Source: a virus (lineage: Duplodnaviria > Caudoviricetes). From it: a stretch of DNA of 54,156 nucleotides. Positions within the stretch are counted from its first letter, which is position 1. Every line of letters starts with the position of its first letter. The stretch covers positions 1 to 54,156 of IMG/VR virus record IMGVR_UViG_3300025608_000549, one strand, 5' to 3'. The position numbers were made by a program, and so were the translations under genes. Below, in pieces: positions 4,460 through 31,690 of the stretch. The notes below the pieces were generated by a model. The model had not been told where the DNA came from. It saw only the letters and a list, made by a program, of their open reading frames with translations, and ran no database searches.

Positions 4460-5275
4460 ATGGACTACTATTCTATTCTCGGTATTAATAAAAACGCTTC
4501 AGACGAAGATATACGCAAGGCGTATAAAAAGAAGTCTATGAAACACCACCCTGACCGTGGTGGCGATGAGGCTGAATTTAAAAAAGTTAACGAAGCATAT
4601 AGCACACTAAAAGATCCACAGAAACGTGCTATGTACGATAATCCACAAAGACATTATAATAGTTCAAACTTCGCAGGAGGACAAAATCCTTTTGAAGATG
4701 TGTTTGGAGATATGTTTCAGAACTTTGGATTTGCTAGACAAGCACCAAACAGAAATCCTCCGATCCATGCTGAAGTTCAAATTGAACTAGAAGATGTGCT
4801 ATTTGGTAAGACTATTGACGCACAAATTGGATTCAGAAACGGTAACACAAAATTAGTAACAATTAACATTCCTAAAGGTGTACACCACGGATCTCAAATT
4901 AGATATCCGCAAATGGGAGATCACAGCAATCCTAGATATCCGGCAGGCGATTTAATTGTCCGTGTTAACGTTAGAAGGCATCATACATTTAAAAGACAAG
5001 AAGACGATCTTATCATAGAACAAAACATTAATGTATACGATGTTATGTTAGGAACTGATATTTCTGTTACTACTTTAGATAGAAAAACATTTACTGTATC
5101 TGTACCGGCTGGATCACAACCTGATACTGTACTAAGAGTAACAGGTGAAGGTTTACCGAATCCACATAATGGTGCTAAAGGAAATTTATTAATTAAATTA
5201 AAAGTAAGAATACCAAAGAAATTAAGCAAACATGAAATTAAAACACTTTCGGATTTGAGAAATGGAAAAGTTTAA
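4460..5275 (+). CDS. dnaJ: DnaJ/CbpA-type co-chaperone (class II, no zinc finger)
   Basis: DYYSILG..., HHPD J-domain motif, G/F-rich linker, C-terminal GDL and GEGLP motifs. Confidence 0.93.
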   Translation: MDYYSILGINKNASDEDIRKAYKKKSMKHHPDRGGDEAEFKKVNEAYSTLKDPQKRAMYDNPQRHYNSSNFAGGQNPFEDVFGDMFQNFGFARQAPNRNPPIHAEVQIELEDVLFGKTIDAQIGFRNGNTKLVTINIPKGVHHGSQIRYPQMGDHSNPRYPAGDLIVRVNVRRHHTFKRQEDDLIIEQNINVYDVMLGTDISVTTLDRKTFTVSVPAGSQPDTVLRVTGEGLPNPHNGAKGNLLIKLKVRIPKKLSKHEIKTLSDLRNGKV

Positions 5276-5777
5276 ACTAGGTCAACAAGAAACATTATAT
5301 CAAGTTGCCGAGCCTTGGGATTTTGAAAAGGACGGCGATGCTTCACAACTAGAAAAAGATATGTGTGAATTTATGATACAAAACAAAGGCATTGGACTTG
5401 CCGCTAATCAGATAGGATTATTGAAAAGAGTATTTGTTATGGGAAGCACTACTATTCCAGGCTTTCCTAAACCTTTTGCTGTTTTTAATCCTGAGATCAC
5501 TGAAATTAGTGATACGCTAGTATTAGATGACGAGGGCTGTTTAAGTTTTCCAGGTTTATATTTTAAAGTATCAAGACCTGAATGGATACAAGCAAAGTTC
5601 TATGACAGAGACAGAAACTTACATGAAGTAAAGATGGACGGGTATTTGGCAAAATGTTTTCAACATGAGTTTGACCATCTTAACGGAATATGTTATACTG
5701 ATAGAATTAGTAAATTAAAGTTAGATTTAGCAATTAAGAAAATGAGGAAAAATAACAAACATGCTAGAACCCAGTGA
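5262..5777 (+). CDS. def: Peptide deformylase
   Basis: GIGLAANQ, EGCLS and QHEFDHLNG motifs. Confidence 0.96.
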   Translation: MEKFKLGQQETLYQVAEPWDFEKDGDASQLEKDMCEFMIQNKGIGLAANQIGLLKRVFVMGSTTIPGFPKPFAVFNPEITEISDTLVLDDEGCLSFPGLYFKVSRPEWIQAKFYDRDRNLHEVKMDGYLAKCFQHEFDHLNGICYTDRISKLKLDLAIKKMRKNNKHARTQ

Positions 5778-8085
5778 TAAATTACAGGCTGTTTTTGAAC
5801 ATGCTATTGACATTGCTCGTAAATTAAATCACGAGTATGTAACAATCGAACATTTGATGTTTAGTATTATGTGCGATGAGGAAACTTATCGTAGTCTTGA
5901 GGAGTTCGGCGCGAAGTCAGATTACATTAAAGCTAATTTAGAACATTATCTAAAGAACAACTTAACAGATATTACTAATCCAGAATTAAAAGAAAAGCCC
6001 CGCAGAACTCAAAGTGTTGAACGTGCTTTGAACAGAGCTTTTACACAAACACTTTTTAGTAGCAGAAGCAGGATCGAAATTGAAGATATGATCCTTTCTA
6101 TATTAGGCGAGAAGAAAAGTTTCGCTTATTACTACTTGACTAAAGCAGGTATAAACAAAGATAAATTCTTAGAATACTTTACCGAAAAGTGCGATGATTT
6201 TATAGAAGAGAGCGAGGAACAAAAGTTGTCAGCAGGACAGTTAGATAAAATTTTAAATGCTTATTGTGATAATCTTTCGTTAAAGGCTAAACAGAAAAAA
6301 ATTGATCCTGTCATCGGACGTGAAACTGAATTAGAAGATATTCAACTTATTTTAGCAAGACGTACAAAATCAAACGTATTGCTTATCGGCGAGCCAGGCG
6401 TGGGTAAGACTGCTATCGCTGAAGGGTTAGCGTTAAAAATTGCGCAAGGAAAAGTTCCAACGTTTATTAAAGATCACATGGTATACACTTTAGATATTAG
6501 TGCGTTACTTGCCGGTAGTAAATACCGAGGTGATTTTGAAGAACGGTTAAAAGCAGTATTAAAAGCATTAGAGAAGAAAGGTAAAATCATTCTGTTTATT
6601 GACGAAGCACACATGATGAATGGTGCTGGCGCGGCAAACGGAAGTGCGAACGACCTTGCTAATATGCTAAAGCCTATGTTAACCAAAGGCACATTAAAAG
6701 TTATTGCTAGTACAACCTGGGAAGAATATCGCAAACACTTCGAAAGTGATCGCGCACTAATGAGACGTTTCCAACGTGTTGATGTTGAGGAACCAAGCCC
6801 AGAACTTACTAGAAAGATTATTCGTGGACTGAAACGTTATTACGAACAGTACCACAATGTTAAAATTACTGACGCCGCTATTGACCAAGCAGTTAAAATG
6901 TCAGTGAAGTACATGACTGATAAAAAATTACCCGATAAAGCAATCGACATTATCGACTGTGCTTGTGCTAGATTTAAAGTAATCGACGATCCTAGTGAAG
7001 AAACAAACTTAGTCGACTTAGAACAAATTATGTTTGAAGTTAGTAAAATGACTAAGATTCCTTTTGAGAATGTTAGTGAAAAAGAAAGTACTAATCTTGC
7101 TAACTTAGAAAATAATTTAAAGAACGCAGTGTTTGGGCAGGACGATGCTATTGGAAACTTACTTGATAAGATTTTTGTAGCACAATCCGGAATGAAATCA
7201 CCAGACAAGCCGATTGGTAGTTTCTTGTTTGTTGGTCCGACAGGTTGTGGTAAAACTGAAACAGCAAAACAGTTGTCAGACAAAATGTCAATGCCATTGA
7301 TTAGATTTGATATGTCAGAATATCAAGAGAAACACTCAGTTGCTAAACTAATTGGTGCTCCTCCAGGATATGTAGGACACGATGAAGATTCAGGACAGCT
7401 TATTACAAAACTACAAGAGAATCCTAATTCAATTCTTTTGCTTGATGAAATTGAAAAAGCACACAAAGATGTAAGTAATATTTTACTACAATTAATGGAC
7501 AACGGCTTTGTTACTGGGTCTAATGGTAAAAAAGCAGATGCTCGTAATACTATTGTTATTATGACTTCAAACTTAGGTGCCGCTGACAATGAACGCAACA
7601 GCATCGGGTTCGACGACCTTGAAGTAAATGACGAAGATATTAAAGCAGTTAAAAAATACTTTGCTCCTGAGTTCCGTAATAGACTCGATGCTATCGTAAG
7701 ATTTGGTAAACTACAACCAGAAACTGTACGTATTATTGTTGATAAGTTTATCCGTGAACTTAATCTTCAAATTCAAGACAAGCATGTTGAAATTGTATTA
7801 GATGATAAGTCAAGAGATTGGCTTGCTGAAAAAGGTTATAATGCTAAGATGGGAGCAAGACCATTGTCAAGAATCATCGATAAAAGCATTAAATCGCCGT
7901 TAAGTCGCCAAATTCTATTTGGTGATCTAAAAGAAGGTGGCAGAGTTTTTGTAACTATTGTTGATGATGCGCTATCATTCGAAATTAAAAATCTAGGAGA
8001 CGACTTAGATAAATTTCAAAAAAGAGCAATGAAAGCACACAATAGAATACAGAAGGGTAACCTTATTCCAAATGACGATACGTAA
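5761..8085 (+). CDS. clpA: ClpA-like AAA+ unfoldase
   Basis: Clp N-domain; two AAA+ modules (GEPGVGKT, GPTGCGKT); IGF ClpP-docking loop (NSIGFDD); no ClpB middle domain. Confidence 0.92.
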   Translation: MLEPSDKLQAVFEHAIDIARKLNHEYVTIEHLMFSIMCDEETYRSLEEFGAKSDYIKANLEHYLKNNLTDITNPELKEKPRRTQSVERALNRAFTQTLFSSRSRIEIEDMILSILGEKKSFAYYYLTKAGINKDKFLEYFTEKCDDFIEESEEQKLSAGQLDKILNAYCDNLSLKAKQKKIDPVIGRETELEDIQLILARRTKSNVLLIGEPGVGKTAIAEGLALKIAQGKVPTFIKDHMVYTLDISALLAGSKYRGDFEERLKAVLKALEKKGKIILFIDEAHMMNGAGAANGSANDLANMLKPMLTKGTLKVIASTTWEEYRKHFESDRALMRRFQRVDVEEPSPELTRKIIRGLKRYYEQYHNVKITDAAIDQAVKMSVKYMTDKKLPDKAIDIIDCACARFKVIDDPSEETNLVDLEQIMFEVSKMTKIPFENVSEKESTNLANLENNLKNAVFGQDDAIGNLLDKIFVAQSGMKSPDKPIGSFLFVGPTGCGKTETAKQLSDKMSMPLIRFDMSEYQEKHSVAKLIGAPPGYVGHDEDSGQLITKLQENPNSILLLDEIEKAHKDVSNILLQLMDNGFVTGSNGKKADARNTIVIMTSNLGAADNERNSIGFDDLEVNDEDIKAVKKYFAPEFRNRLDAIVRFGKLQPETVRIIVDKFIRELNLQIQDKHVEIVLDDKSRDWLAEKGYNAKMGARPLSRIIDKSIKSPLSRQILFGDLKEGGRVFVTIVDDALSFEIKNLGDDLDKFQKRAMKAHNRIQKGNLIPNDDT

Positions 8086-10389: not shown

Positions 10390-10734
10390 ATGAGATTAAT
10401 GGAATTATTTTCAAGACCCGATAACGAAGATCCTAGATTAAATCCAGATATTAATTATCTAGACGATCTAAAGTTTTATATTGATAACGACAATGATATC
10501 GTGTCTAATGTATTATTTCCTGCTATTAAAAAACACAGACAGAATCCCGATGACGAAACTTCTTATAAATTTTATGTAAAGCCATTGAAACAATGTGCTG
10601 AACATTATGCTGACAAATATGAATTGTCAGATATTAAAGATGATATTTTTAGTAATGAAAGTATTTTAGAATTAGCAAAAAGGATCGCTGAAGAGCAATT
10701 AGCACATATCAAAAGCAAGGACTACAACGGATGA
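10390..10734 (+). CDS. Hypothetical protein (start revised to MRLMELF)
   Basis: SD AAGGAG before ATG 10390; removes overlap with upstream gene. Confidence 0.75.
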   Translation: MRLMELFSRPDNEDPRLNPDINYLDDLKFYIDNDNDIVSNVLFPAIKKHRQNPDDETSYKFYVKPLKQCAEHYADKYELSDIKDDIFSNESILELAKRIAEEQLAHIKSKDYNG

Positions 10735-12131
10735 GATTATTTGACCTTTTTGAGGATAAATTAAAAACTGCAGTAATTGGTTTTGGAAGATTAAATCCTC
10801 CAACAACAGGTCACGGTGTGCTGGTCGATGCTATCAATGCTAAAGCAAAACAATATGGGGGAGATCCTATATTGTTTTTAACAATGACCCATACACCTTT
10901 TCTAACTGATAAAACACAAAAACTTAGACCTTGGGACAAAATCAAAAATCCACTACAATGGAAACAGAAACTATCATACGCACAAAAGTTTTTTGATATT
11001 CCTATTAGTACAGATCCTAGCCTAAACACTATTATGGCTGTTATGAAAAGTTTAGAAACCAAGGGCTATGAGAAGGTAGTTCTTGTTTGTGGTTCGGACA
11101 GAGTACAAGAATTTGAAAGTCAAGTTCTTCCTTTTAATAATACGCCTGACAAAGCAGGACATATTAACTTTAACATCCAAGAAGTTAGTGTTGAAGAAGG
11201 TGGATTTAGAGACGAAGAAGCAGACGATGCTAGTGGCATGAGCGCAAGTAAAATGCGTGAAGCGGCAGCAAATAATGATTTTGAAACTTTTAAAAAGGGT
11301 GTACCTGTAGAAAGTTTAGCAAAACCAATGTTTGATGATGTACGTCAAGCACTTGGCTTAAATCATCAATCAAATAAAAGCGAAGCAACATTGGTGAAGC
11401 CAATGGGTGGTGCTTCGATTAAACCAAGAGATCCTAATTGGCGTGATATGGAAGCACTTCGCAGAAGTAATGCCGCAGGTTCTCACAAGGATAAAAAGAG
11501 AGATCAAAACACTGGTTATCAAAAACACAAGGGCCAGAAATACGATATGAATTCAATTGCTGAAGGTTATCTCGATATAGAAGTAATGGGCCACAAATAC
11601 ATGCCCGACGAAGATCGAGAAGATGACAATGTAAAGATTTGGCACACTATTGTGACTCCCCAAGGTAAGACCATAGACGCAGACTTTACTCCATACGCAT
11701 ATATGGACAAAGAAGATCTTGAATTATATATTAAATTAAATTATCCTAAGCGTATTACAGCAGGTCCGTTAGACAAAAATGACTTGCATAAATTAGCACA
11801 AATTAAAGGAGTTGCTGATTTGGATCCTAAAATGGCAAACGCAGGTAAAAACGAAGCATACGATGACTTTGACTGGGGTAGTGCTTCTAAAAGAGAATTT
11901 AAACGTAAAGAACTAGAATACGAGCTCGGACACGAAGATGAGATTATGAAAAGAGACCAACAGGGTCCTTGGTATATTAAAATTGACGGTAAAATTTATA
12001 AGCAAAAAGGTGAGCCTAAAGTATTCAGTGTAAAGAAAGGTGCTAACAACTACGCACTTGCTATTATTAAAAACAAACCACAACTTCAAGGCAAGATTCT
12101 TTTAACTAGAAAACCAGTAGATGATCAATAA
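10731..12131 (+). CDS. Cytidyltransferase-like (HIGH-superfamily) nucleotidyltransferase with extra C-terminal modules
   Basis: FGRLNPPTTGH, NPL, GSDRV and MSASKMR motifs typical of T4-like phage cytidyltransferase. Confidence 0.8.
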   Translation: MRLFDLFEDKLKTAVIGFGRLNPPTTGHGVLVDAINAKAKQYGGDPILFLTMTHTPFLTDKTQKLRPWDKIKNPLQWKQKLSYAQKFFDIPISTDPSLNTIMAVMKSLETKGYEKVVLVCGSDRVQEFESQVLPFNNTPDKAGHINFNIQEVSVEEGGFRDEEADDASGMSASKMREAAANNDFETFKKGVPVESLAKPMFDDVRQALGLNHQSNKSEATLVKPMGGASIKPRDPNWRDMEALRRSNAAGSHKDKKRDQNTGYQKHKGQKYDMNSIAEGYLDIEVMGHKYMPDEDREDDNVKIWHTIVTPQGKTIDADFTPYAYMDKEDLELYIKLNYPKRITAGPLDKNDLHKLAQIKGVADLDPKMANAGKNEAYDDFDWGSASKREFKRKELEYELGHEDEIMKRDQQGPWYIKIDGKIYKQKGEPKVFSVKKGANNYALAIIKNKPQLQGKILLTRKPVDDQ

Positions 12132-16338: not shown

Positions 16339-19008
16339 ATGAGTTACGTAGATGCTTTCTACAACCGTGATACCGACACTATTCATGTTGTCGAACGAGA
16401 CGCCGAAGGTAAGCGTCAATTTAAAGAATACCCTGCAAGATATGTTTTTTATTATCCAGATGCTAAAGGAAAGTACACTAGCATTCATGGAGAACCATTG
16501 TCTCGAGTAACGTGTAAAAATCTAAAAGACTTCCACAAAGAACAAAAAATCTACAGCAATAAAAAACTATACGAAAGTGATATCAATCCTATCTTTAGAT
16601 GTTTAGAGGACAACTATCTCAATCAAGACGCACCTAAACTAAATGTTGCGTTTTTCGATATTGAGGTCGACTTTGATCCGGAACGTGGTTACGCATCGCC
16701 AGAAGATGCGTTTATGCCAATTACATCTATTGCTATTCATCTTCAGTGGTTAGATACATTAGTCTGTTTTGCGATTCCTCCCAAAACAATGTCTATGGAA
16801 GAAGCACAAGATGCTGTTAAAGAGTTTGACAACACTTACTTGTTTGAAACAGAAGGTGAGCTTTTAGATGCTTTCTTGGACCTAATTCAAGATGCTGACA
16901 TTTTAACTGGTTGGAACAGTGAAGGCTTTGATATTCCGTATACTGTTAATCGTGTAACTAAAGTACTAAGCAAAGAGGATACTAGACGTTTTTGCTTATG
17001 GGATCAACTTCCTAAGAAGCGTGAGTACGAAAAGTTTGGTAGACAAAGTGTTACGTATGACTTTTACGGTCGTGTACACTTAGACAGTCTTGAACTATAT
17101 CGCAAATATACCTATGAAGAACGTCATACATATCGACTAGATGCTATTGGCGAAATGGAAATCGGCGAAAATAAAACTGTTTACGAAGGCACACTTGATC
17201 AGTTATACAACAATGACTTTAGAACGTTCATTGAATATAACAGACAGGATACTGCGCTGTTGGACAAACTAGATAAGAAACTAAAGTTTATTGATCTCGC
17301 AAACACAGTTGCTCATGAAAATACTGTTATGCTACAAACAACAATGGGTGCTGTTGCTGTTACAGAACAAGGTATTATCAACGAGGCACACAGACGTGGC
17401 TTTATCGTTCCTAACAGGATTAGGCGAGAGCCCGGCAGTGAACCTGCGGCAGGTGCTTATGTTGCGTATCCTAAAAAAGGCATCGCACAATGGATTGGCT
17501 CCGTAGATATCAACTCTCTGTATCCGTCAGCGATTCGTGCGTTGAACATGGGTCCAGAAACTATCGTAGGACAACTACGACAGGATTATACCAAGAACTA
17601 CATCGACGAACAAATGATTCGTAATAAGAAGTCGTTTGCCGCGGCATGGGAAGGGCAGTTTGGTAGTTTAGAATACGAACTTGTTATGGAACGTAATGTA
17701 GCAAAAGAAATTACTATCGACTGGGAAGATGGTAACAGCGATACGTTATCAGGCGCTCAAATTTATGACTTAATTTTTGAGAGTAATCAACCGTGGATGC
17801 TTAGTGCTAACGGTACAATTTTTACTTACGAAAAAGAAGGTATCATTCCTGGACTACTAAAACGTTGGTATGCTGAACGTAAAGAAATGCAAGCCAAACT
17901 AAAAGAAGCCAAAGATGCTGGAAATAAAATTGAAATCGAATATTGGGACAAGCGTCAGCTAGTTAAGAAGATTAACTTGAACAGTTTGTATGGTGCTATT
18001 CTTAATCCAGGATGTAGATTCTTTGATAATAGAATCGGACAGTCGACCACACTAACTGGTCGTACTATTGTTAAACACATGGCTAGTAAGATTAACGAAA
18101 TTATTACAGGTGAATACGACTACAAAGGTAAAGCAGTTATCTATGGCGACACTGACTCTTGCTATTTTAGTGCGTATCCAGTTCTTCGTAATGAAATCGA
18201 AAAAGGACAAATTCCGTGGGATAAAGATAGTATCGTGAAACTTTACGATCAAATCGCGGACGAAGCATCAGCAAGTTTTCCTAAAATGATGTTAGACAAG
18301 TTTCATTGTCCTAAGAGTAGAGGCGAAGTAATTAAAGCAGGTCGAGAAGTAGTTGCTGTAAGCGGACTGTTTATTACCAAGAAACGTTATGCTGTACTGT
18401 ACTATGACATGGAAGGTTTCCGTGTAGATACAGACGGTAAAGAAGGTAACATCAAGGCAATGGGTCTAGATCTTAAGCGATCAGATACTCCTGTTGTAAT
18501 TCAAGACTTTTTAAAAGAAGTATTAGAAATGGTGTTGTCAGGTAAAGAAAAGGAAGCAGTACTAGATTACATTACTGAGTTTAGAACAGACTTTCATGGA
18601 AGGCCGGGTTGGGAGAAAGGTTCGCCTAAACGTGCTAATAAGATTACCGAATACCAAGCAAAGGAAAAGAAACTTGGTAAAGCAAATATGCCAGGACACG
18701 TAAGAGCAAGTATTAACTGGAACACACTCAAGCGTATGAACGGCGACAAGTATTCAATGAACATCACGGACGGTGCTAAAGTTATTGTTTGTAAAGTAAA
18801 GGATAACCCAATGGGATTTACTAGTGTGGCTTATCCGGTTGACGAACTTAGGCTTCCAGAATGGTTCAAAGAATTACCATTTGATGATTCCCAAATGGAA
18901 AGAACAGTTATTGATGAAAAACTCGGTAACTTGATCGGTGTGCTTGACTGGGACATCAGTCAAACAAGGCAAGACAACACATTTAACAGTTTGTTTGATT
19001 TTGAATAA
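16339..19008 (+). CDS. Family B DNA polymerase (gp43-like)
   Basis: ExoI DIEVD, ExoII WNSEGFD, ExoIII YNRQD; DINSLYPS, KINLNSLYG, YGDTDS, KKRY. Confidence 0.97.
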   Translation: MSYVDAFYNRDTDTIHVVERDAEGKRQFKEYPARYVFYYPDAKGKYTSIHGEPLSRVTCKNLKDFHKEQKIYSNKKLYESDINPIFRCLEDNYLNQDAPKLNVAFFDIEVDFDPERGYASPEDAFMPITSIAIHLQWLDTLVCFAIPPKTMSMEEAQDAVKEFDNTYLFETEGELLDAFLDLIQDADILTGWNSEGFDIPYTVNRVTKVLSKEDTRRFCLWDQLPKKREYEKFGRQSVTYDFYGRVHLDSLELYRKYTYEERHTYRLDAIGEMEIGENKTVYEGTLDQLYNNDFRTFIEYNRQDTALLDKLDKKLKFIDLANTVAHENTVMLQTTMGAVAVTEQGIINEAHRRGFIVPNRIRREPGSEPAAGAYVAYPKKGIAQWIGSVDINSLYPSAIRALNMGPETIVGQLRQDYTKNYIDEQMIRNKKSFAAAWEGQFGSLEYELVMERNVAKEITIDWEDGNSDTLSGAQIYDLIFESNQPWMLSANGTIFTYEKEGIIPGLLKRWYAERKEMQAKLKEAKDAGNKIEIEYWDKRQLVKKINLNSLYGAILNPGCRFFDNRIGQSTTLTGRTIVKHMASKINEIITGEYDYKGKAVIYGDTDSCYFSAYPVLRNEIEKGQIPWDKDSIVKLYDQIADEASASFPKMMLDKFHCPKSRGEVIKAGREVVAVSGLFITKKRYAVLYYDMEGFRVDTDGKEGNIKAMGLDLKRSDTPVVIQDFLKEVLEMVLSGKEKEAVLDYITEFRTDFHGRPGWEKGSPKRANKITEYQAKEKKLGKANMPGHVRASINWNTLKRMNGDKYSMNITDGAKVIVCKVKDNPMGFTSVAYPVDELRLPEWFKELPFDDSQMERTVIDEKLGNLIGVLDWDISQTRQDNTFNSLFDFE

Positions 19009-19015
19009 AAAAGTG

Positions 19016-19044
19016 TTGACAAACCTAAATAAATCTACTATACT
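19016..19044 (+). promoter_or_regulatory. Sigma70-type promoter TTGACA-N17-TATACT with embedded TAAATA (19026-19031)
   Basis: Direct motif match. Confidence 0.75.
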
Positions 19045-19068
19045 ATATAGAAATCAGGAGACATCTCA

Positions 19069-19806
19069 ATGAAAGACATTTTACAAGACATTGTAAGCCA
19101 TACACAGAACTTAGGCTTTCTTACTACCGTAAAGGTTACAGGTGAAGAAAGTAAGACTTCGATCTTTTCAATGGCTGACGACCGCTCTGTGATTATGGAA
19201 GCAGAAACACATAATCCATACGCAGACATGATTGGTATCTTTGGTATGCCACAACTTAACAAACTAAAGTATTTGCTAGATGGTAGTGAATACAAAGAAG
19301 ATGCTAAGATCAGTATTACTACAGCAGATCGTAACGGAGAAACAGTTCCAGTAGGCATCCACTTTGAAAATAAAGATGGCGACTTCAAAAACGATTATCG
19401 TTTTATGAACATGGAAATTATTAACGAGAAGATGAAAACTGTTAAGTTCCGTGGCGCTAACTGGAACGTTACTGTTGTTCCAACACTTGCTGGTGTACAG
19501 CGTATGAGCTTTCAAGCTGGCGCAAACCCAGAGCATCCAACATTCCTTGCTAAAACAGATCAAGGCAACTTGAAATTTAGTTTTGGTGATGCTAGTTCAC
19601 ACGCAGGCGAATTTACTTTTGCTACTGATGTTGAAGGTACTTTAGATCGCGGCTGGACTTGGCCAGTACTTCCAATCCTAAGTATTCTTAAGATTGCTGA
19701 TGTAAACAATACTAAGATGAGTCTTAGTAACGATGGCGCTATCCAAATTGAATTAGACAGCGGACTAGCAAATTACAAATATATCATTCCAGCACAGGCG
19801 GCCTAA
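19069..19806 (+). CDS. Sliding clamp (gp45/PCNA-like processivity factor)
   Basis: 245 aa, follows polB; clamp-like beta/alpha pattern ending in ...YKYIIPA; inferred from size, pattern and context. Confidence 0.7.
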   Translation: MKDILQDIVSHTQNLGFLTTVKVTGEESKTSIFSMADDRSVIMEAETHNPYADMIGIFGMPQLNKLKYLLDGSEYKEDAKISITTADRNGETVPVGIHFENKDGDFKNDYRFMNMEIINEKMKTVKFRGANWNVTVVPTLAGVQRMSFQAGANPEHPTFLAKTDQGNLKFSFGDASSHAGEFTFATDVEGTLDRGWTWPVLPILSILKIADVNNTKMSLSNDGAIQIELDSGLANYKYIIPAQAA

Positions 19807-19814
19807 ATATTATT

Positions 19815-21341
19815 ATGAAAGCACCAGTAAACTTAACACCGTTACAGAAAGACTACGCAGTGTATTTGCCTGCGATTAGTACTTTCTATTCCACATACAT
19901 ATCTAAACAAAGACAAGGCGAATTCGTTCCACAGGATCGTATTCCGCAAGGCTTTGATCGCGGCATTGAAGGTATGAACTTTCTAAATCCAGAAGAAGGT
20001 TATTTTACATACAAGTATGGTTTGTATTCAGCAGGCCACGCACAACTAGATCTTGACAAAACACTTGTACAAGATTCTATGATTCAAAATAGAGACAGAA
20101 AGAATACTGTTATCTTAGGCGACTCAGGCGGATATCAGATTGGTAAAGGTGTTCTTAAGTTTGATTGGCATAATTTTGAAGGTGCTAGTGCTGATAAAAC
20201 TCGTAGTCAAATTTTAAACTGGCTTGAACTAACTGCTGATTGGTCAATGCTACTCGATGTTCCGACTTGGGCAAGCGATCATATTCATTCGCCTAAGACA
20301 GGACTAAAAAGTTTTGATGATTGTTTAAATAAAACACTACACAACAATGACTACTTTATTCGTAATCGCTTAGGACAAACAAAGTTCTTAAACGTATTAC
20401 AAGGTAGTGATTGGGAAACTGCTGATGCTTGGTATCAAGCAGTTAAACATCTTCCAACAGAAGGGTGGGCAATGGGTGGTAAAAATATGTGTGATATGGA
20501 AATCGCACTTAAACGTATCATTACATTGCGTGACGAAAAACTGTTAGATGATAGAGACTGGATGCACTTCTTAGGCACAGCTCAACTAGACTGGTCGTGT
20601 TATTTGACTAGTATTCAACGACAAGTAAGAAAGACCGTTAATGAAAACTTTACCATATCTTTTGATTGCGCCTCACCGTTTATCGCAACAGCACACGGAC
20701 TTGTGTACACAAACGCACAACACACAAACAAGCGGTGGTCAGTCATCATGGACAAAGCACCCGACAACAAAGCCATTAGCCAGGCTTTTGACATCCCCTT
20801 CCCTTTCGAATCAGAAATCGGACGAAGAATCACACAAGGTGACGTCTGCTGGTACAAAGAAGGAATGGAAAACAAAATAGGCAAGATTGGAAAAACATCT
20901 TGGGATAGTTTTAGTTATGCACTAATGATGGCACATAATACATACTGTCACATTGTTGCGGTACAACGTGCTAACAACTTAATGGATATCGAAACTGCTC
21001 GATTCAAACCAGATTGGAGAGAGTGGCGTAAGATCAAAGATTCAGACATGAGTGATGAATTCAGTGATTGGGTTCCACGTAATGTATTGTACTTTGATCG
21101 CTTCGTAGAAGAATTGTTCGCGAGCGAAAAGCCTTTTGAAATGATTGAACAAGCAAAGCCCATGTTGAATAACATGATGGGTATGCGTTTGAAAGGCGGC
21201 GTTGCGAATAATACCTTCAACAACTTGTTTGATGAAGATCAAAAAACAGGCGGTGTTGAAGATTTTAACGATCCAAATGACGAGAAACTTCTCGAATTGG
21301 AAGAACTATATCATGAAGGACTAGCAAAGGAAACTGTCTAA
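19815..21341 (+). CDS. dpdA: TGT-fold transglycosylase, DpdA-like (7-deazaguanine insertion into DNA)
   Basis: TGT motifs DSGGYQ, MLLDVP, NVLQG, GWAMGG, HFLG, SFDCASP; clustered with folE/queE; TAAATA (19804-19809) 5 nt upstream. Confidence 0.8.
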   Translation: MKAPVNLTPLQKDYAVYLPAISTFYSTYISKQRQGEFVPQDRIPQGFDRGIEGMNFLNPEEGYFTYKYGLYSAGHAQLDLDKTLVQDSMIQNRDRKNTVILGDSGGYQIGKGVLKFDWHNFEGASADKTRSQILNWLELTADWSMLLDVPTWASDHIHSPKTGLKSFDDCLNKTLHNNDYFIRNRLGQTKFLNVLQGSDWETADAWYQAVKHLPTEGWAMGGKNMCDMEIALKRIITLRDEKLLDDRDWMHFLGTAQLDWSCYLTSIQRQVRKTVNENFTISFDCASPFIATAHGLVYTNAQHTNKRWSVIMDKAPDNKAISQAFDIPFPFESEIGRRITQGDVCWYKEGMENKIGKIGKTSWDSFSYALMMAHNTYCHIVAVQRANNLMDIETARFKPDWREWRKIKDSDMSDEFSDWVPRNVLYFDRFVEELFASEKPFEMIEQAKPMLNNMMGMRLKGGVANNTFNNLFDEDQKTGGVEDFNDPNDEKLLELEELYHEGLAKETV

Positions 21342-21859
21342 TGAAAAGAAACTATGCTTCGGGTGTTAATAGTGACGTTGACTTTTTTGTAGGATATGAA
21401 GTTGAAAAGACTCCTGCTTACAATTTAAAAACATTGTTTGTAACAGGTTTAAAAGATCCTGCTGACATTCAACTTTGGTATGAGAAAGAAGAATGTGAAC
21501 ACATCTTCTTCGGTTCTAATCATAGTTACCAACCAAAAATAGCAGAAGACTATGAAGCATGGGAAGAAATGATTGAACATTTCTTGGAACAGGATATCAT
21601 TTGTAGTTTGGATATTCCTTTAGATGTTTCCGAAGAATTTTTAGACGGACCGTTAGTAGAATATAATCATTTTATTCCGCAACTCCGTGTAGTGATTCCT
21701 TACATCGATCAATGGAATTATAACACAATGGTTAAAATTGACGACAAAGGATTTAAAGCGTCCAATCCAGGTGTTTGGTGTCACAGTTTACACGATCTAA
21801 AAGATCGCACTAAATTCACAGATTGGGCAAAGTATGGTCTTGACAAAATAGTAGAGTAG
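21341..21859 (+). CDS. Hypothetical protein coupled to the DpdA-like gene
   Basis: 172 aa; TAATG overlap; GYEVEKTP, HIFFGSNHS, NPGVWCH segments. Confidence 0.75.
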   Translation: MKRNYASGVNSDVDFFVGYEVEKTPAYNLKTLFVTGLKDPADIQLWYEKEECEHIFFGSNHSYQPKIAEDYEAWEEMIEHFLEQDIICSLDIPLDVSEEFLDGPLVEYNHFIPQLRVVIPYIDQWNYNTMVKIDDKGFKASNPGVWCHSLHDLKDRTKFTDWAKYGLDKIVE

Positions 21860-21868
21860 TAATATAAT
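21840..21868 (+). promoter_or_regulatory. Perfect sigma70 consensus TTGACA-N17-TATAAT
   Basis: -35 at 21840-21845, -10 at 21863-21868; -10 overlaps ATG 21867. Confidence 0.8.
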
Positions 21869-22349
21869 GAGTGTACAACAAGAAAGTTATCACAACTATA
21901 TGATGAGACGAATGAAAGAAGAAGACGCAAAAATGAATAATCCGCTAAGTAAAGCTAATAGAAGTATATGGGTTACCTTCCGTAAAGAAGGTGTTCATAT
22001 GTATCCAGGAGCAGATAGTGACCCGAAATTGGCAACAGGTGATTGGGACGATGTGTCGTTTCTTGGTGTGCCTCATCGCCATATCTTTCATTTCCGGGTG
22101 CGCATCGAGGTGTTCCACAACGATAGAGACATCGAGTTCATCCAGTTCAAACGCTGGATGGAAAGACTCTATAATGGAGAGAGTACAACCGACAGTGAAG
22201 TGCTCGTTCTAAATCATCGTTCATGCGAAATGATTGCGGATGAACTGTATGAGAAAATTTCTGCGAAGTATCCCGGCCGCTTTGTAGAGATTGATGTCGC
22301 CGAAGATGGCGAAAATGGCTGTTCAATTTTTTATCCTAAACCACAATAA
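21867..22349 (+). CDS. QueD-paralogous T-fold protein, DpdL-like (predicted CDG decarboxylase); true start may be a downstream Met (21900-21933)
   Basis: H...LGVPHRHIF (LxxxHRHxF instead of QueD CxxxHGH), IEF..FK, SCEMIA, VAEDGEN. Confidence 0.7.
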   Translation: MSVQQESYHNYMMRRMKEEDAKMNNPLSKANRSIWVTFRKEGVHMYPGADSDPKLATGDWDDVSFLGVPHRHIFHFRVRIEVFHNDRDIEFIQFKRWMERLYNGESTTDSEVLVLNHRSCEMIADELYEKISAKYPGRFVEIDVAEDGENGCSIFYPKPQ

Positions 22350-22373
22350 CTTGATAGCAAGAGGAATATTAAA

Positions 22374-22580
22374 ATGGCAATTAAGTTCAACCGCGATGCG
22401 TATGACCGTGTATTCACTGATCTCGAAGCATACCTCGATTTTTGCCGATTTGAACTCCGTGAGTTCAATCCTGCTCACCTTTACGACAAAAGTAATTCAA
22501 ACTTTCGTGCGTTCCAAGCGAGCAAACGTAAAAACTATCGGCACCGCCAGCCACGTTACCAATTTTCAAAAAGGAAGTAA
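22374..22580 (+). CDS. Small hypothetical protein with basic tail
   Basis: 68 aa; SD GAGG. Confidence 0.7.
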   Translation: MAIKFNRDAYDRVFTDLEAYLDFCRFELREFNPAHLYDKSNSNFRAFQASKRKNYRHRQPRYQFSKRK

Positions 22581-22583
22581 TTA

Positions 22584-23672
22584 ATGACTATTTACATCGT
22601 AGACATCGAAGCAGTTGATACACGTTATACTAAACAATGGAAAGACTATGTACCGACATTGTTGAAAAGGTCTACGGGTAAAGAAGTTAAAGTAATTAGC
22701 GGTGGGGAAACGCCTCAGGCTACTACGCCTGGGGCTTTCCTTAACTTCGGTGGTACTAACGTTTATAAATCTAAACAACTCGAACAGATTGGCGAGATGT
22801 TTTGTAAAGGAGAAATTAAAGATGGAGATTATTTCCTATATACGGATGCGTGGAACCCAACTGTTATCCAGCTTCGTTACATGGCTGAGCTCTTGGGCGT
22901 GGATATACGAATCGGTGGCCTTTGGCATGCTGGTAGTTATGATCCTCATGATTTCCTTGGTAGGCTAATTGGTAGTGCTCCGTGGGTAAGACATGCTGAA
23001 AAGAGCATGTTCCATGTGTACGATCATAACTTCTTTGCTACAGACTTTCATATTAAGATGTTTGTAGAAACGCTATGGGAAGACGATCCATATTTGTACG
23101 AGTGGACACAAGAAGTACTTGAAGGCGAAGACGAGCGTTTTAAACGTGTTGGCTGGCCTATGGAATATTTAGACGATACTCTAACAGTATATAAGGGCAT
23201 GGAGAAAAAGAATACTGTGCTATTTCCGCACAGAATTGCTCCAGAAAAGCAAGTAGAAATATTTCGCGATTTAAAAGAAGCCCTGCCAGAATACGATTTT
23301 ATTATCTGTCAAGAACGTGAACTTACTAAAAACGAGTATCACAACTTACTAGGTGAAGCAAAGATGGTTTTTAGTGCTAACTTACAAGAAACACTTGGTA
23401 TTAGTTGGTACGAAGGCGCACTTGTTGGAGCGTTGCCTTTGGTGCCAGATAGATTAAGTTACAGTGAAATGGCTGTTGACGATTTCAAGTATCCAAGCGA
23501 ATGGACTACTGACTTCCAACAGTATAAACTTAATAAAGGCGAACTTGTAAAACGCATTAAATTTATGATGGAAAATTACGACAATTATCGTGTAAGCCTA
23601 AATAAACAAGTTGATCAACTAAAAGATAAATTCTTTGGTTGCTCTAACTTAATAAAAGTGTTACAATATTAA
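22584..23672 (+). CDS. GT-B fold glycosyltransferase (GT4-like)
   Basis: WHAG, FPHRIAPEKQ and QETLGISWYE (ExxGxxxxE) motifs; LPLVPDRLSY. Confidence 0.8.
   Translation: MTIYIVDIEAVDTRYTKQWKDYVPTLLKRSTGKEVKVISGGETPQATTPGAFLNFGGTNVYKSKQLEQIGEMFCKGEIKDGDYFLYTDAWNPTVIQLRYMAELLGVDIRIGGLWHAGSYDPHDFLGRLIGSAPWVRHAEKSMFHVYDHNFFATDFHIKMFVETLWEDDPYLYEWTQEVLEGEDERFKRVGWPMEYLDDTLTVYKGMEKKNTVLFPHRIAPEKQVEIFRDLKEALPEYDFIICQERELTKNEYHNLLGEAKMVFSANLQETLGISWYEGALVGALPLVPDRLSYSEMAVDDFKYPSEWTTDFQQYKLNKGELVKRIKFMMENYDNYRVSLNKQVDQLKDKFFGCSNLIKVLQY
23639..23667 (+). promoter_or_regulatory. Candidate promoter for folE: TTGCTC-N17-TACAAT with extended TG
   Basis: TGnTACAAT at 23659-23667. Confidence 0.5.
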
Positions 23673-23713
23673 TATGATGAGAGACATCCTCGTCTATAAC
23701 TCGGAGAAACAAA

Positions 23714-24400
23714 TTGGCAAAATCAGATGAAATTAAAGCAAAGCTAGAAGATGCTAACATTCGCTATTGGGCGGGTGACAACATTTCAGAAGTCCTACAA
23801 AAGGGCGACAAAGAAGAACTTATCGAAGAAGCAACAGTAGCATTTGAAAATGTGCTGGATGCTCTTGTTATTGATCGGAACAACGATCCTAACTCACAAG
23901 GTACAGCAAGACGACTTGCTAAAATGTACTTTAATGAGATCATGAGCGGGCGATATGATCCAATTCCAAACGCAACAGCATTTCCAAATGATTCAGAAGA
24001 CCGTTACGAAGGCATGCTTGTAGTTCGTAGCGAACTTCGTAGTATATGTAGTCACCATCATCAACCTGTTACTGGAGTTGCTTATATTGGCATTATTGCG
24101 GCAGAGAAATTAATTGGTCTTAGTAAGTATACACGTATTGCTCAATGGTGCGCTCGTCGCGGAACACTACAAGAAGAACTTGCTAATGACATTGCTCGTG
24201 AAATTCAAAAAGCAACAGGTGCTGAACATGTAGGCGTGTACGTTCAAGCAACACATGGTTGTTGTGAAAACCGTGGTATTATGGCACATAGCTCACTTAC
24301 GCAGACAACTGTACTAAAAGGTGCGTTTAAAGACGACCCAGGTACAAAGAAAGAGTTTATGGACAATATTAAACTACAACAGGAGTTTGCTCCACGATGA
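23714..24400 (+). CDS. folE: GTP cyclohydrolase I
   Basis: TARRLAKMY, SICSHHHQP, IGLSKYTR, LQEEL, HGCCENRG; TTG start with SD GGAG. Confidence 0.95.
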   Translation: MAKSDEIKAKLEDANIRYWAGDNISEVLQKGDKEELIEEATVAFENVLDALVIDRNNDPNSQGTARRLAKMYFNEIMSGRYDPIPNATAFPNDSEDRYEGMLVVRSELRSICSHHHQPVTGVAYIGIIAAEKLIGLSKYTRIAQWCARRGTLQEELANDIAREIQKATGAEHVGVYVQATHGCCENRGIMAHSSLTQTTVLKGAFKDDPGTKKEFMDNIKLQQEFAPR

Positions 24401-28995: not shown

Positions 28996-29916
28996 ATGAC
29001 AATAGCAACTGACAAGAAATATTATTATAGCGAAATCTTTCACAGTATTCAAGGCGAAGGACATTACACAGGTGTTCCTACTGCTTGGATACGTTTTTTC
29101 TTGTGTAATTTACAATGTAATGGATTTGGACAAATTGATCCTACTAATCCAGAAACATATGAATTGCCTTTTGAAAAGTTTGATACTAGCACAGTTAATC
29201 GTGTAGAGGACTTGCCTGTTTGGGACAAAGGATGTGATAGTTCTTATACTTGGAGCAAAAAGTTTAAACATCTAATGGGACATAAGACAGCTATTGAACT
29301 TGCTCACGAAATTAGAAACACATTAAAAACAGACAGTAATCCAGAAGGGTTATTCCTACATCCTGTAACAAAACAACGACAGCATTTTTGTGTTACAGGA
29401 GGCGAACCTTTAATGAAACACGCACAGGAAGCATTCATTGGTATCATGTGTGAATTTGCTAGACTAGGCGACATGCCAGCAAGTGTTACATTTGAAACAA
29501 ATGGTACACAACCTCTTACACAAGAGTTTATGGACTTTTGGCATGTAGATAATAGCGTTACAAAAGATGTTGAATTATTCTTTAGTGTAAGTCCTAAACT
29601 ATGGAGTGTGGCAGGTGAACAAGCAAAGAAAGCAATTAAGCCTGAAACAGTAGCACAATATAGAAGTTTATCTGAAAAAGGTCAACTAAAGTTTGTTGTA
29701 GGCGGTGAACAACAACAGTGGGACGAAATGGAAGATGTTGTCTCACAATTCAAAGCACAAGGAGTAGACTACCCAGTTTGGGTTATGCCTGTCGGTGCTA
29801 GAGAAGAAGAACAAACTGCAACAGCCGGTGCTGTTGCTAAAAAAGCATTTGAACGAGGATACAATGTTGCGGCTAGAGTACATGTATACTTGTTCGGAAA
29901 CGCAATTGGAACATAA
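28996..29916 (+). CDS. queE: 7-carboxy-7-deazaguanine synthase (radical SAM)
   Basis: SEIFHSIQGEG, IRF..CNLQC...GCDS, VTGGEPL, ETNGT, SVSPKL, RVHVYLFG. Confidence 0.92.
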   Translation: MTIATDKKYYYSEIFHSIQGEGHYTGVPTAWIRFFLCNLQCNGFGQIDPTNPETYELPFEKFDTSTVNRVEDLPVWDKGCDSSYTWSKKFKHLMGHKTAIELAHEIRNTLKTDSNPEGLFLHPVTKQRQHFCVTGGEPLMKHAQEAFIGIMCEFARLGDMPASVTFETNGTQPLTQEFMDFWHVDNSVTKDVELFFSVSPKLWSVAGEQAKKAIKPETVAQYRSLSEKGQLKFVVGGEQQQWDEMEDVVSQFKAQGVDYPVWVMPVGAREEEQTATAGAVAKKAFERGYNVAARVHVYLFGNAIGT

Positions 29917-30316: not shown

Positions 30317-30723
30317 TGCGTGACGATTTAATGGTACAACAGCAAGTATCCACTGTATGGCAACATATGGTAGGCGTTATCTGTTTGAATCAAACAAACC
30401 GTAAACAAGTTAAAGCAGTTTTACCAAAACTATTCTTAGTATGTCCGACTCCAGAGGAATTACTTAGAACTCCAGATCATATTATTAAAGAGTTAATTAA
30501 GCCGCTTGGAATGGTAAATGTTCGTGAAAAGCGTCTACGTCAGATGTCAAAAGATTACTTGACTTGGGACGGAGAAGATGCTACAATGTTATATGGAATT
30601 GGGAAATACGGTAGTGATAGTTATCGGCTTTTCTATAAGAATGAGATCCCCGAAAATATTGGTGATCATGAACTCAAACGATATGTGGAAGAAGAATTAA
30701 ATGGCAACTTACATACTAGTTGA
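30313..30723 (+). CDS. HhH-GPD DNA glycosylase, MBD4-like
   Basis: W..MVGVICLNQT, PLG, LYGIGKYGSDSYRLF, DHEL..Y resemble the MBD4 glycosylase domain. Confidence 0.8.
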   Translation: MMRDDLMVQQQVSTVWQHMVGVICLNQTNRKQVKAVLPKLFLVCPTPEELLRTPDHIIKELIKPLGMVNVREKRLRQMSKDYLTWDGEDATMLYGIGKYGSDSYRLFYKNEIPENIGDHELKRYVEEELNGNLHTS

Positions 30724-31690
30724 TACAGCAAACACTTTCTTTAGAGCACGACACGTAGTACGTGGCGATGCTGATATTAAGATCGGAATGGCTTTTCATA
30801 TTACACTTAGCAGTATTATTAAGGCATGGCAAGACTTTAAAGGTGATCATGTTGTATTTTGCTTAGAAGGACGTAGTTGGCGTAAGGATCATTATGCTCC
30901 GTACAAACGCAATCGACAAGAAACTCGCGATGCTCTAACAGCACGTGAACAAGAAGAAGATAAATTGTTTTGGGAAGCATTTGACACATTTAAAGACTTT
31001 ATAGCAGATAAAACAAACTGTACTGTATTACAAAATTCTGTGTTAGAAGCAGATGATTTGATTGCTGGATGGGTTCAAAGTCATCCTCAAGACGATCATG
31101 TTATTATTTCTACAGATAGCGACTTTGCTCAACTTATTGCTCCTAATGTTAAGCAATATAACGGTGTTGCTAATATGACAATTACACACGAAGGTTACTT
31201 TGATGACAAAGGCAAAGAAGTTATTGACAAAAAGACAAAAGAACCCAAGGCAGCACCTGACCCGCAATGGTTGCTTTTTGAGAAGTGTATGCGAGGCGAC
31301 ACAAGCGACAACGTTTTTTCAGCATATCCAGGTGTGCGTAAGAAAGGTACTAAGAACAAAGTAGGGCTTATTGAAGCATACGAAGACAAGGATACAAAAG
31401 GGTTTAATTGGAATAATCTTATGCTTCAGCGTTGGGTTGATCATAACGGCGAAGAGCATCGTGTACTAGATGACTACAATCGTAACCGTGTATTAATTGA
31501 CTTGGCGGCACAGCCTGATGAAATAAAAGAACAAATTGCTACAACTATAGCAAGCAGTACAGATAATCCTAAAAATATTAATCAAGTGGGTATCAGACTT
31601 ATGAAGTTTTGTAATTTGTTTGATCTACAGAAGATCGCAGATCAAGCACAACGTTATGCTGAGCCACTAAATGCGAGGTATCCGAAATGA
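30701..31690 (+). CDS. rnh: T4 RNase H-like 5'-3' exonuclease (FEN family)
   Basis: LVDTAN, SWRK...YKRNR, EADDLI, STDSDFAQL, GDTSDNV. Confidence 0.92.
   Translation: MATYILVDTANTFFRARHVVRGDADIKIGMAFHITLSSIIKAWQDFKGDHVVFCLEGRSWRKDHYAPYKRNRQETRDALTAREQEEDKLFWEAFDTFKDFIADKTNCTVLQNSVLEADDLIAGWVQSHPQDDHVIISTDSDFAQLIAPNVKQYNGVANMTITHEGYFDDKGKEVIDKKTKEPKAAPDPQWLLFEKCMRGDTSDNVFSAYPGVRKKGTKNKVGLIEAYEDKDTKGFNWNNLMLQRWVDHNGEEHRVLDDYNRNRVLIDLAAQPDEIKEQIATTIASSTDNPKNINQVGIRLMKFCNLFDLQKIADQAQRYAEPLNARYPK

Follow-up and report, generated by a model that had tools for sequence, protein, structure and literature searches.

A polymerase-like peptide in the tail of a phage transglycosylase-family protein suggests docking of a candidate DNA-modifying enzyme on the sliding clamp

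How might an enzyme that exchanges bases in DNA after replication reach the many guanines of a fast-replicating phage genome? The question is raised by three consecutive genes in a stretch of 54,156 nucleotides of viral DNA (Duplodnaviria, Caudoviricetes; IMG/VR record IMGVR_UViG_3300025608_000549), which is referred to below, at its full length, as the window. It comes from a virus record estimated to be 15% complete and covers part of the genome of a jumbo phage, a relative of Pseudomonas phage PA5oct. Its + strand encodes a family B DNA polymerase (16339-19008), a predicted sliding clamp (19069-19806) and a 508-residue protein of the tRNA-guanine transglycosylase (TGT) superfamily (19815-21341), the last being a candidate DNA 7-deazaguanine transglycosylase of a DpdA-like, unnamed subfamily, referred to below as the enzyme. 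A sequence-only reading of this DNA had noticed that the polymerase and the enzyme share a peptide near their C-termini and had proposed that the enzyme rides the clamp, modifying guanines right behind the replication fork. Of this interpretation, the clamp fold and the conservation of the peptide were borne out by the analysis reported here, and clamp binding itself received weak support in silico.

The C-terminus of the 889-residue polymerase reads ...SQTRQDNTFNSLFDFE, and its last residues are DNTFNSLFDFE. Residues 880-887, NTFNSLFD, are encoded by bases 18976-18999, and the protein ends ...QDNTFNSLFDFE before its stop codon. The hydrophobic and acidic end peptide NTFNSLFDFE (18976-19005, + strand) is presumed to be a clamp-interaction motif, judging from the translation and the tails of relatives. 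The enzyme's tail reads ...RLKGGVANNTFNNLFDEDQKTGGVEDFNDPNDEKLLELEELYHEGLAKETV and contains NNTFNNLFDED, in which residues 466-473 of 508, NTFNNLFD, come from bases 21210-21233. Seven of the eight residues are thus identical; translation reproduced both this count and the positions and letters given in the sequence-only reading. In the enzyme the motif is internal, and an acidic tail of 35 residues runs from it to the end of the protein. When all six-frame stop-to-stop segments of at least 80 residues in the window were scanned with the strict motif F[NDSGAKT][NSKDA][LMF][FY][DESTGV], the polymerase and the 508-residue protein were the only two matches. The BLOSUM62 score of the paired 8-mers is 40, a value never reached when the last 75 residues of the enzyme were shuffled 2000 times, and the best 8-mer score within the 433-residue body of the enzyme is 20, half of that in the tail. 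The match between the two motifs is therefore more than chance. Five of the 24 bases that encode them differ, three at synonymous third positions, which indicates that the likeness is held at the protein level and is no recent DNA copy.

The protein that supplies the first of these motifs is a polymerase of the T4/RB69 gp43 type, as judged from Pfam (DNA_pol_B, 1.5e-34; DNA_pol_B_exo1, 4.3e-18), PHROG (phrog_262, 2.5e-204) and its closest PDB sequences, chains 1clq/1ig9 and others (E 8e-64 over residues 21-834), which we take to be RB69 gp43. Its end is a regular feature of the relatives: [LMF]F[DST]F[DE] closes the protein in all 59 IMG/VR open reading frames (ORFs) with a resolved start, and by eye all 77 listed IMG/VR polymerase tails match. 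Several relatives have an interrupted polymerase gene: in PA5oct (locus L001, 1605-6831) a Hef-like homing endonuclease gene divides it, in loci L087 and L095 it consists of two ORFs, the first extending into extra sequence, and L091 has a short N-terminal piece on its own.

The 245-residue ORF that lies between the two motif-bearing genes (19069-19806, + strand) matched no Pfam family, and its PHROG match, phrog_12062, is of 'unknown function'. Its AlphaFold2 (AF2) model has a mean predicted local distance difference test score (pLDDT) of 89.7 and a predicted template-modelling score of 0.86, and the matches listed by Foldseek against the PDB were all PCNA or sliding clamps (E 4e-11, TM score ~0.66). 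Ranks 1-38 in VIA-align were clamps or processivity factors throughout, with Z 18.0 to the archaeal PCNA of A. fulgidus, Z 16.9 to T4 gp45 (6drt; root-mean-square deviation 3.3, 212 aligned residues) and Z 13-16.6 to bacterial beta clamps. A profile of the clamp alignment (A2) run against PDB sequences returned HA3/HA70 chains at E 0.02-0.8, which were disregarded as chance. By its predicted fold, which agrees with protomers of about 230-260 residues made of two topologically similar beta-alpha-beta-beta-beta domains, and by its gene position this ORF is a sliding clamp of the PCNA/gp45 fold, the identity on which the sequence-only reading had relied. Its PA5oct homologue EST35_0314 (L001, 6912-7658; 35% identity) is annotated 'structural protein' on the basis of electrospray ionization tandem mass spectrometry (ESI-MS/MS); the clamp may be packaged or travel with virions, or else the label reflects no more than detection in the preparation.

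The 508-residue protein (19815-21341, + strand) had been described from its letters as having a TGT fold, and Foldseek, VIA-align and profile alignment to Tgt agree on this. Foldseek gave 65 PDB matches at E<=1e-3, those listed being all tRNA-guanine transglycosylases. The best structural alignments were to QTRT2 (Z 14.6), TGT (13.8), archaeosine TGT (13.5) and the DNA preQ0 insertase DpdA (7ui4, 12.4), with generic TIM barrels ranking below DpdA at Z ~10. Seventy-two diverse family members that share 27-54% identity with the window protein were combined into a profile (A3), which hhalign aligned to E. coli Tgt with 81% probability (E 1.2e-5, 196 columns). This alignment pairs GDSGGYQ with tDSGGFQ and SFDCASP with mFDCVMP, and D103, S104, G106, H251 and D284 are invariant across the 72 members. 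The aspartates of the DSGG[FY]Q and FDC motifs are presumably the TGT catalytic pair, and the invariance of the residues aligned to these motifs argues for catalysis. Among predicted viral structures (BFVD), the neighbours of the enzyme include phage proteins named TGT or queuine tRNA-ribosyltransferase and also proteins from Vibrio phage nt-1 and Cellulophaga phage phiST (E 0.025 for phiST), two phages with known DNA deazaguanines according to parts of a published survey (PMC10516641).

The further description of the protein as DpdA-like holds at the level of the superfamily and fails below it, in that the protein matches none of the named DpdA subfamilies and misses the Pfam cut-off. No BLAST-level link to named DpdAs was found. 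The DpdA3 subfamily (phiST CGPG_00065 type), suggested by the presence of a DpdL-like gene and the lack of QueC, was considered and rejected: hhalign against phiST DpdA3 gave 68% probability over 83 columns, the lengths are 508 and 259 residues, and tblastn against Cellulophaga and Campylobacter phages returned no match even at E<=10. We place the protein, on the predicted fold, in the TGT superfamily outside every named DpdA subfamily. In its model a TIM-barrel body with TGT catalytic motifs is succeeded by a poorly conserved C-terminal extension, predicted to be disordered (pLDDT <50 over residues 457-488), that bears the motif. The zinc-binding subdomain of TGTs has Cys/His ligands; the alignment of A3 with Tgt stops short of this subdomain and A3 contains no invariant Cys, C345, H374 and H379 being invariant among close relatives only. 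Taken with the gene neighbourhood described below, the enzyme probably exchanges guanine in DNA for a 7-deazaguanine base. The family is large: 7,699 of 8,000 scored candidates from a metagenome collection clustered at 90% match it, it has 1,004 representatives at 50% clustering, and IMG/VR holds 496 matching stretches. Every name encountered for a member was 'hypothetical protein', including that of the PA5oct member, EST35_0316.

The sequence-only reading depends on the peptide being conserved, and conservation was found in the close relatives, in PA5oct, in Vibrio phage 2.275.O and at the C-termini of distant family members. Within the otherwise poorly conserved extension, the segment G-x-R-L-x-G-G...N-x-F-x-x-L-F-D (residues 456-473; 21180-21233, + strand) has column identities, in alignment A1, of 1.0 at G456, R458, G461, G462 and N466, 0.74 at F468, 0.79 at L471 and 0.95 at F472. 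Residues 476-485 are variable in the same alignment (0.16-0.47), and the motif is a conserved island flanked by variable stretches. A second island, D-x-x-L-x-x-L-E (residues 489-496; 21279-21302, + strand), follows in a predicted C-terminal helix that spans residues 490-507 of the AF2 model, with identities of 0.79 at D489, 0.97 at L492, 1.0 at L495 and 0.89 at E496; it is present in PA5oct (NDEKLTELE) and several distant representatives and is missing where the LF motif is terminal. Across 80 IMG/VR loci whose enzymes are 69-93% identical, the loose motif N.[FYVSI]..[LMHF][FY] occurs in the tails of 79 and the strict form [FY]..[LM]F in 63; further homologues gave 113 and 89 of 119, respectively. 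In a distant set of 109 representatives of at least 400 residues and less than 50% mutual identity, 28 carry polar-[LM]F-polar, or the same core at the very end, within the last 12 residues (mean 2.7 and maximum 8 in 500 shuffles), and no such match occurs in a body window of equal length. The motif is thus about tenfold enriched at the C-termini of distant members. Nine megaphage-type loci, found with the query P0348 at 34-39% identity, all end in ..LF or ..IF within their last four residues; P0348, from which these nine were found, had itself been scored as motif-less. For the distant representatives P0288, P0301, P0325 and P0335 no related loci were found in viral contigs, and for P0301 none in genome contigs either.

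The sequence-only reading had proposed examining homologous pairs of polymerase and enzyme for co-variation of the motif. The motif of the enzyme does track the cognate polymerase tail lineage by lineage. In PA5oct the polymerase ends HFDSLFGW and the enzyme has SFNSLFDV; in Vibrio phage 2.275.O the two proteins end NNTDLFDW and NNNDLFGW; in the ten loci of the P0255 clade the polymerase ends ..DDLFDF and the enzyme ..NNLFDFS or variants of it; and in L095 the ends are KAMKLFNY and KAKSLFEF. When enzymes and polymerases of five deep lineages were paired in every combination, the lineages having been taken with the polymerase tails unknown beforehand, pairing within each genome gave the top summed score (1 of 120 permutations), and for four of the five polymerases the enzyme of its own genome was the best match. 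The observed scores were reached by 0 of 2000 tail shuffles in Vibrio phage 2.275.O, 61 of 2000 in PA5oct and 48 of 2000 in L095. The order polymerase, clamp, enzyme, which is that of the window on one strand and as first read, is kept in PA5oct, in Vibrio phage 2.275.O, in 10 of 10 loci of the P0255 clade and in L095, as well as in 77 of the 80 close IMG/VR loci, the remaining three ending at a contig edge.

Does the peptide bind the clamp? In T4 and RB69, gp43, gp33 and gp55 have acidic and hydrophobic C-terminal ends that bind gp45; these epitopes are interchangeable, that of gp55 sits after a divergent linker, and the RB69 clamp has been crystallised with the last 11 residues of the polymerase, according to parts of the published account (PMC2988020). 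PDB entry 6drt is titled 'GP45 complexed with recognition peptide of ligase'. The enzyme peptide fits the T4/RB69-type definition, being short, hydrophobic and acidic, close to the C-terminus, placed after a divergent linker and highly similar to the end of the cognate polymerase. Structure prediction of the clamp with the peptide, which had been proposed along with the original observation, was run for the enzyme tail, using three copies of the clamp and enzyme residues 455-508, both given as alignments and with only the partner scored. The score was 0.60 (0.61, 0.60 and 0.59 in separate runs) against 0.04 for the best control and 0.00 for a control in which the clamp was replaced, with at least 58% agreement in contacts between runs and a partner pLDDT of at least 46. 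Of 80 solved complexes 58 pass the mark used, as do 2 of 110 mismatched pairs; only 7 of the 80 passed with a score of 0.60 or less, a range that also holds both of the passing mismatches. The prediction lends weak support to binding of the enzyme peptide to the phage clamp.

By analogy with T4/RB69, we infer that the enzyme tail docks onto the phage sliding clamp; DNA would be the substrate and the reaction would be coupled to the fork. With the three sites that a trimeric clamp offers, enzyme and polymerase could sit on one clamp together, or the enzyme could occupy clamps left on the new duplex. Guanines would in this way be replaced by a 7-deazaguanine base during DNA synthesis. We regard the full mechanism, in which a clamp-docked enzyme modifies DNA at the fork, as probable by a modest measure. 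That the whole large, unnamed DpdA-like branch of TGTs in jumbo and mega phages, EST35_0316 included, consists of true clamp clients whose peptide co-evolves with that of the polymerase seems to us just on the probable side of even.

Several observations weigh against this reading, some of them touching the peptide and its partner. Two of the five lineages in the pairing test had been picked for a terminal motif in the enzyme tail, and the sample is to that extent a selected one. Some clades have S, V or I in place of the first aromatic residue of the motif, 17 of the 80 close relatives are without the strict form, and no motif is seen in about half of the distant representatives listed (mostly 415-465 residues long). 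In the window clade the motif has an internal position, with the second conserved island after it. Around the nine megaphage-type loci, which retain the terminal ..LF, blastp over 10 kb found neither a family B polymerase (PolB) nor a PCNA-like clamp. In phage Phosso (L083, 11968-16169) and in L101 (9968-14242), the ORFs upstream of the TGT-like gene are unrelated to the clamp alignment (probability <1%), and primase-like and DnaB-like helicase genes directly follow it; the TGT-like gene there still lies in a replication module with no PolB or PCNA-like clamp detected nearby. In the complex prediction the partner pLDDT is below 50, and the pass may reflect likeness to solved clamp-peptide complexes: these are well represented among solved structures, and a score of 0.60 shows likeness more than binding.

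The remaining points against the reading concern the enzyme itself. Its AF2 model has a mean pLDDT of 57.9 and a confident core only at residues 120-285, the model having been built on a shallow alignment of close relatives before the diverse profile A3 was available. The protein has no Pfam or PHROG match and misses the cut-off of Pfam TGT (PF01702), a family that found nothing in the six-frame translation of the window even at E<=10 and matched 14 of 14 control genomes; among the 72 family members only 4 give matches to it, all weak (best E 0.0045). Searches of PDB sequences with hidden Markov models of A1 and A3 returned no TGT and gave unrelated chains at E 0.14-2.3, attributable to chance. 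Finally, it is genomic context alone that points to DNA as the substrate.

If the peptide is not read by the clamp, another protein of the replisome, such as a single-stranded DNA-binding protein, the primase or helicase, or the clamp loader, might read it, and the polymerase and the enzyme would both be recruited to the same hub. Phosso and L101 keep a terminal ..LF beside primase and DnaB-like helicase genes, with a PCNA-like clamp undetected nearby, and in these two the motif might be recognised by a beta-type clamp or by some other protein of the replisome. In T7, acidic tails that end in an aromatic residue bind other replisome partners, and the complex prediction gives the clamp weak support. 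Against this stand the clamp gene placed between the two motif-bearing genes in five lineages, the score of 0.00 when the clamp was replaced, and the nature of the polymerase, which is of the gp43 type, whose C-terminus is a documented ligand of gp45 in the parts of the T4/RB69 account cited above (PMC2988020). We consider a different replisome reader unlikely.

The peptide might instead dock onto the beta clamp of the host, DnaN. The bacterial clamp-binding consensus is QL[SD]LF, which the x-x-L-F core resembles, and the core [polar]-[LM]-F is often terminal. The megaphage-type relatives retain the motif with no PCNA-like clamp detected nearby, and Phosso has a gene whose annotation is that of a DnaE-like polymerase III alpha fragment. 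The clamp model moreover aligns with bacterial beta clamps (Z 13-16.6), which indicates that both kinds of binding site are structurally related. However, a clamp gene of the phage's own lies directly between polymerase and enzyme in the window and in four other lineages, and the motif tracks the phage polymerase tail from lineage to lineage, as fits a co-evolving, phage-encoded partner. Docking on the host clamp therefore appears to us distinctly unlikely.

A third possibility concerns the chemistry: the protein might act on tRNA as a transglycosylase, or might have a regulatory role in which it contends with the polymerase for the clamp. The nearest solved folds are tRNA enzymes, which rank ahead of DpdA, QTRT2 at their head is listed as a non-catalytic subunit, and the TGT zinc subdomain falls outside the aligned region. 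By contrast, the residues aligned to the DSGGFQ and FDC motifs of Tgt are invariant in 72 diverse members, the gene is embedded among replication and 7-deazaguanine genes, and the viral structural neighbours include proteins of nt-1 and phiST, whose DNA deazaguanines are described in parts of the survey (PMC10516641). The DNA of PA5oct in addition has the behaviour of G-modified DNA, and the available part of the description of that phage (PMC12191111) names no other transglycosylase. A protein that leaves DNA unmodified is thus very improbable. That the resemblance is a chance or compositional effect of acidic tails is scarcely credible: the motif is short, and the PA5oct and L095 scores were reached by 61 and 48 of 2000 shuffles, but for the window and Vibrio phage 2.275.O none of 2000 reached them, the six-frame window holds only two strict matches, 79 of 80 relatives conserve the motif, distant members show the roughly tenfold C-terminal enrichment, and the pairing was the best of 120.

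Modification of DNA by the enzyme would suit the surrounding genes, which include several for making a 7-deazaguanine precursor. On the + strand downstream of the enzyme lie genes for a DpdL-like, QueD-fold protein (21867-22349; phrog_17812), a 362-residue protein of unassigned family (22584-23672), GTP cyclohydrolase I (FolE), the first step of 7-deazaguanine synthesis (23714-24400; Pfam GTP_cyclohydroI 1.9e-39, phrog_2197), and a QueE-like radical S-adenosylmethionine enzyme, or 7-carboxy-7-deazaguanine (CDG) synthase (28996-29916; phrog_2076 'QueE-like radical SAM domain' 4.3e-56; 39% identity to PA5oct QueE, E 3e-62). The DpdL-like protein matches PA5oct gp318 (blastp E 1e-49) and phiST CGPG_00067 (E 1e-13), the latter named DpdL, a predicted CDG decarboxylase, in the part of the survey that treats phiST (PMC10516641). 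The 362-residue protein has no Pfam or PHROG match; its PA5oct homologue, EST35_0317 (45% identity, E 3e-97), is encoded directly after the TGT-like gene. The window showed neither QueC nor a canonical QueD. As in phages of the phiST type, the base inserted may be CDG, 7-deazaguanine (DG) or something derived from them. The cluster (21341-24400 and 28996-29916) also holds an ORF of 172 residues.

The association of the enzyme gene with 7-deazaguanine synthesis genes was confirmed in the window, in PA5oct and in Vibrio phage 2.275.O. Phages of the PA5oct group are the closest isolated ones, with 43% identity, the order split polymerase, clamp, small ORF and enzyme, and QueE nearby. A 2025 preprint states that PA5oct DNA resists five restriction enzymes, from which its authors inferred a modified G, and in its available part lists QueE and a QueD-fold gene and names no transglycosylase (PMC12191111). 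In Vibrio phage 2.275.O the homologue (32% identity) follows the polymerase and a clamp-like gene and precedes QueF, a transporter, QueC and FolE.

Compared with the clamp clients of T4 and RB69, the system in the window is alike in having a gp43-type polymerase with a short hydrophobic and acidic end, a similar peptide placed elsewhere after a divergent linker, and a PCNA-like clamp that aligns with gp45 at Z 16.9. It differs in that the additional client would be a base-exchange enzyme, as predicted, where T4 and RB69 have a transcription factor or a ligase, and in that the peptide of the window clade is internal, 35 residues before the end, and succeeded by a second conserved island. With the DpdA family (bacterial DpdA, bDpdA, 7ui4; phage DpdA1-DpdA4) the enzyme has in common a TIM barrel of the TGT superfamily with conserved Asp motifs and a place in phage genomes beside FolE, QueD-fold and QueE genes, its relative PA5oct having DNA that behaves as G-modified. 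The DpdA3 phage phiST likewise has a cluster with a DpdL-like gene and no QueC, adjoining a polymerase gene. Unlike the named DpdAs, the enzyme has a C-terminal extension with a polymerase-like motif, shows no BLAST link to them and does not satisfy Pfam TGT. A parallel in principle is the maintenance methyltransferase DNMT1, which is tethered to PCNA by a PCNA-interacting peptide (PIP) box: here too a short clamp-binding peptide would bring a DNA-modifying enzyme to newly replicated DNA, although DNMT1 methylates the base in place, the phage enzyme would swap it, and the two have no sequence relationship.

The sequence-only reading had known of no description of clamp docking for DpdA, and our literature search likewise found no DpdA-clamp link and nothing relevant on clamp-binding motifs in phage DNA modification. 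The word 'clamp' is absent from the main text of PMC10516641, whose supplementary list of DpdA homologues may include members of the present family, and no further DpdA subfamilies (DpdA5, DpdA6) were found in that search. What is proposed is thus a known enzyme superfamily and a known docking principle in a combination previously undescribed, within an abundant and unannotated phage family.

Phage 7-deazaguanine DNA modifications guard genomes against restriction enzymes and some other nucleases, and docking on the clamp would be a simple answer to how a post-replicative base-exchange enzyme reaches many guanines in a genome that replicates fast. If the mechanism is true, the exchange of guanine for 7-deazaguanine would be processive on the clamp at the fork, the enzyme would be the first base-exchange DNA-modifying enzyme on the clamp 'toolbelt' and would offer a route to high-level genome replacement, and the modified G of PA5oct would gain its missing transglycosylase. 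The list of clamp clients would be extended to a new chemistry, and the short peptide could be used for annotating phage clamp clients. The finding also flags a huge unannotated enzyme family, with a member in PA5oct, a candidate therapeutic phage.

Peptides that resemble the motif were encountered in other proteins as well. A flap endonuclease (FEN)-type 5'-3' exonuclease of the window (30701-31690) contains ..CNLFDLQK.. 20 residues before its end and was considered as a third clamp motif; it was rejected because the PA5oct equivalent, ..CNRWALEQ.., sits in a conserved block. Look-alikes at N-termini occur in two adjacent ORFs of the window, 10390-10734 and 10731-12131, which begin MRLMELF and MRLFDLF, and in gp469 of Vibrio phage 2.275.O (L084, 13726-14838), which adjoins the TGT-like gene of that phage and begins MFNELFDF. 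Elsewhere in the window are encoded a DnaJ-type co-chaperone (4460-5275) and a ClpB/Hsp104-like protein with a double AAA+ module (5761-8085). The 'TGT domain-containing protein' of Vibrio phage GR7B (L097, 5614-7230; 538 residues) is a different phage TGT-domain protein, with DSGGFQ and CxCxxC; past its catalytic body it reads ..SSNKTLFGKEEED.., followed by a lysine-rich tail, and clamp-type peptides may accordingly occur in other phage TGT/DpdA families too.

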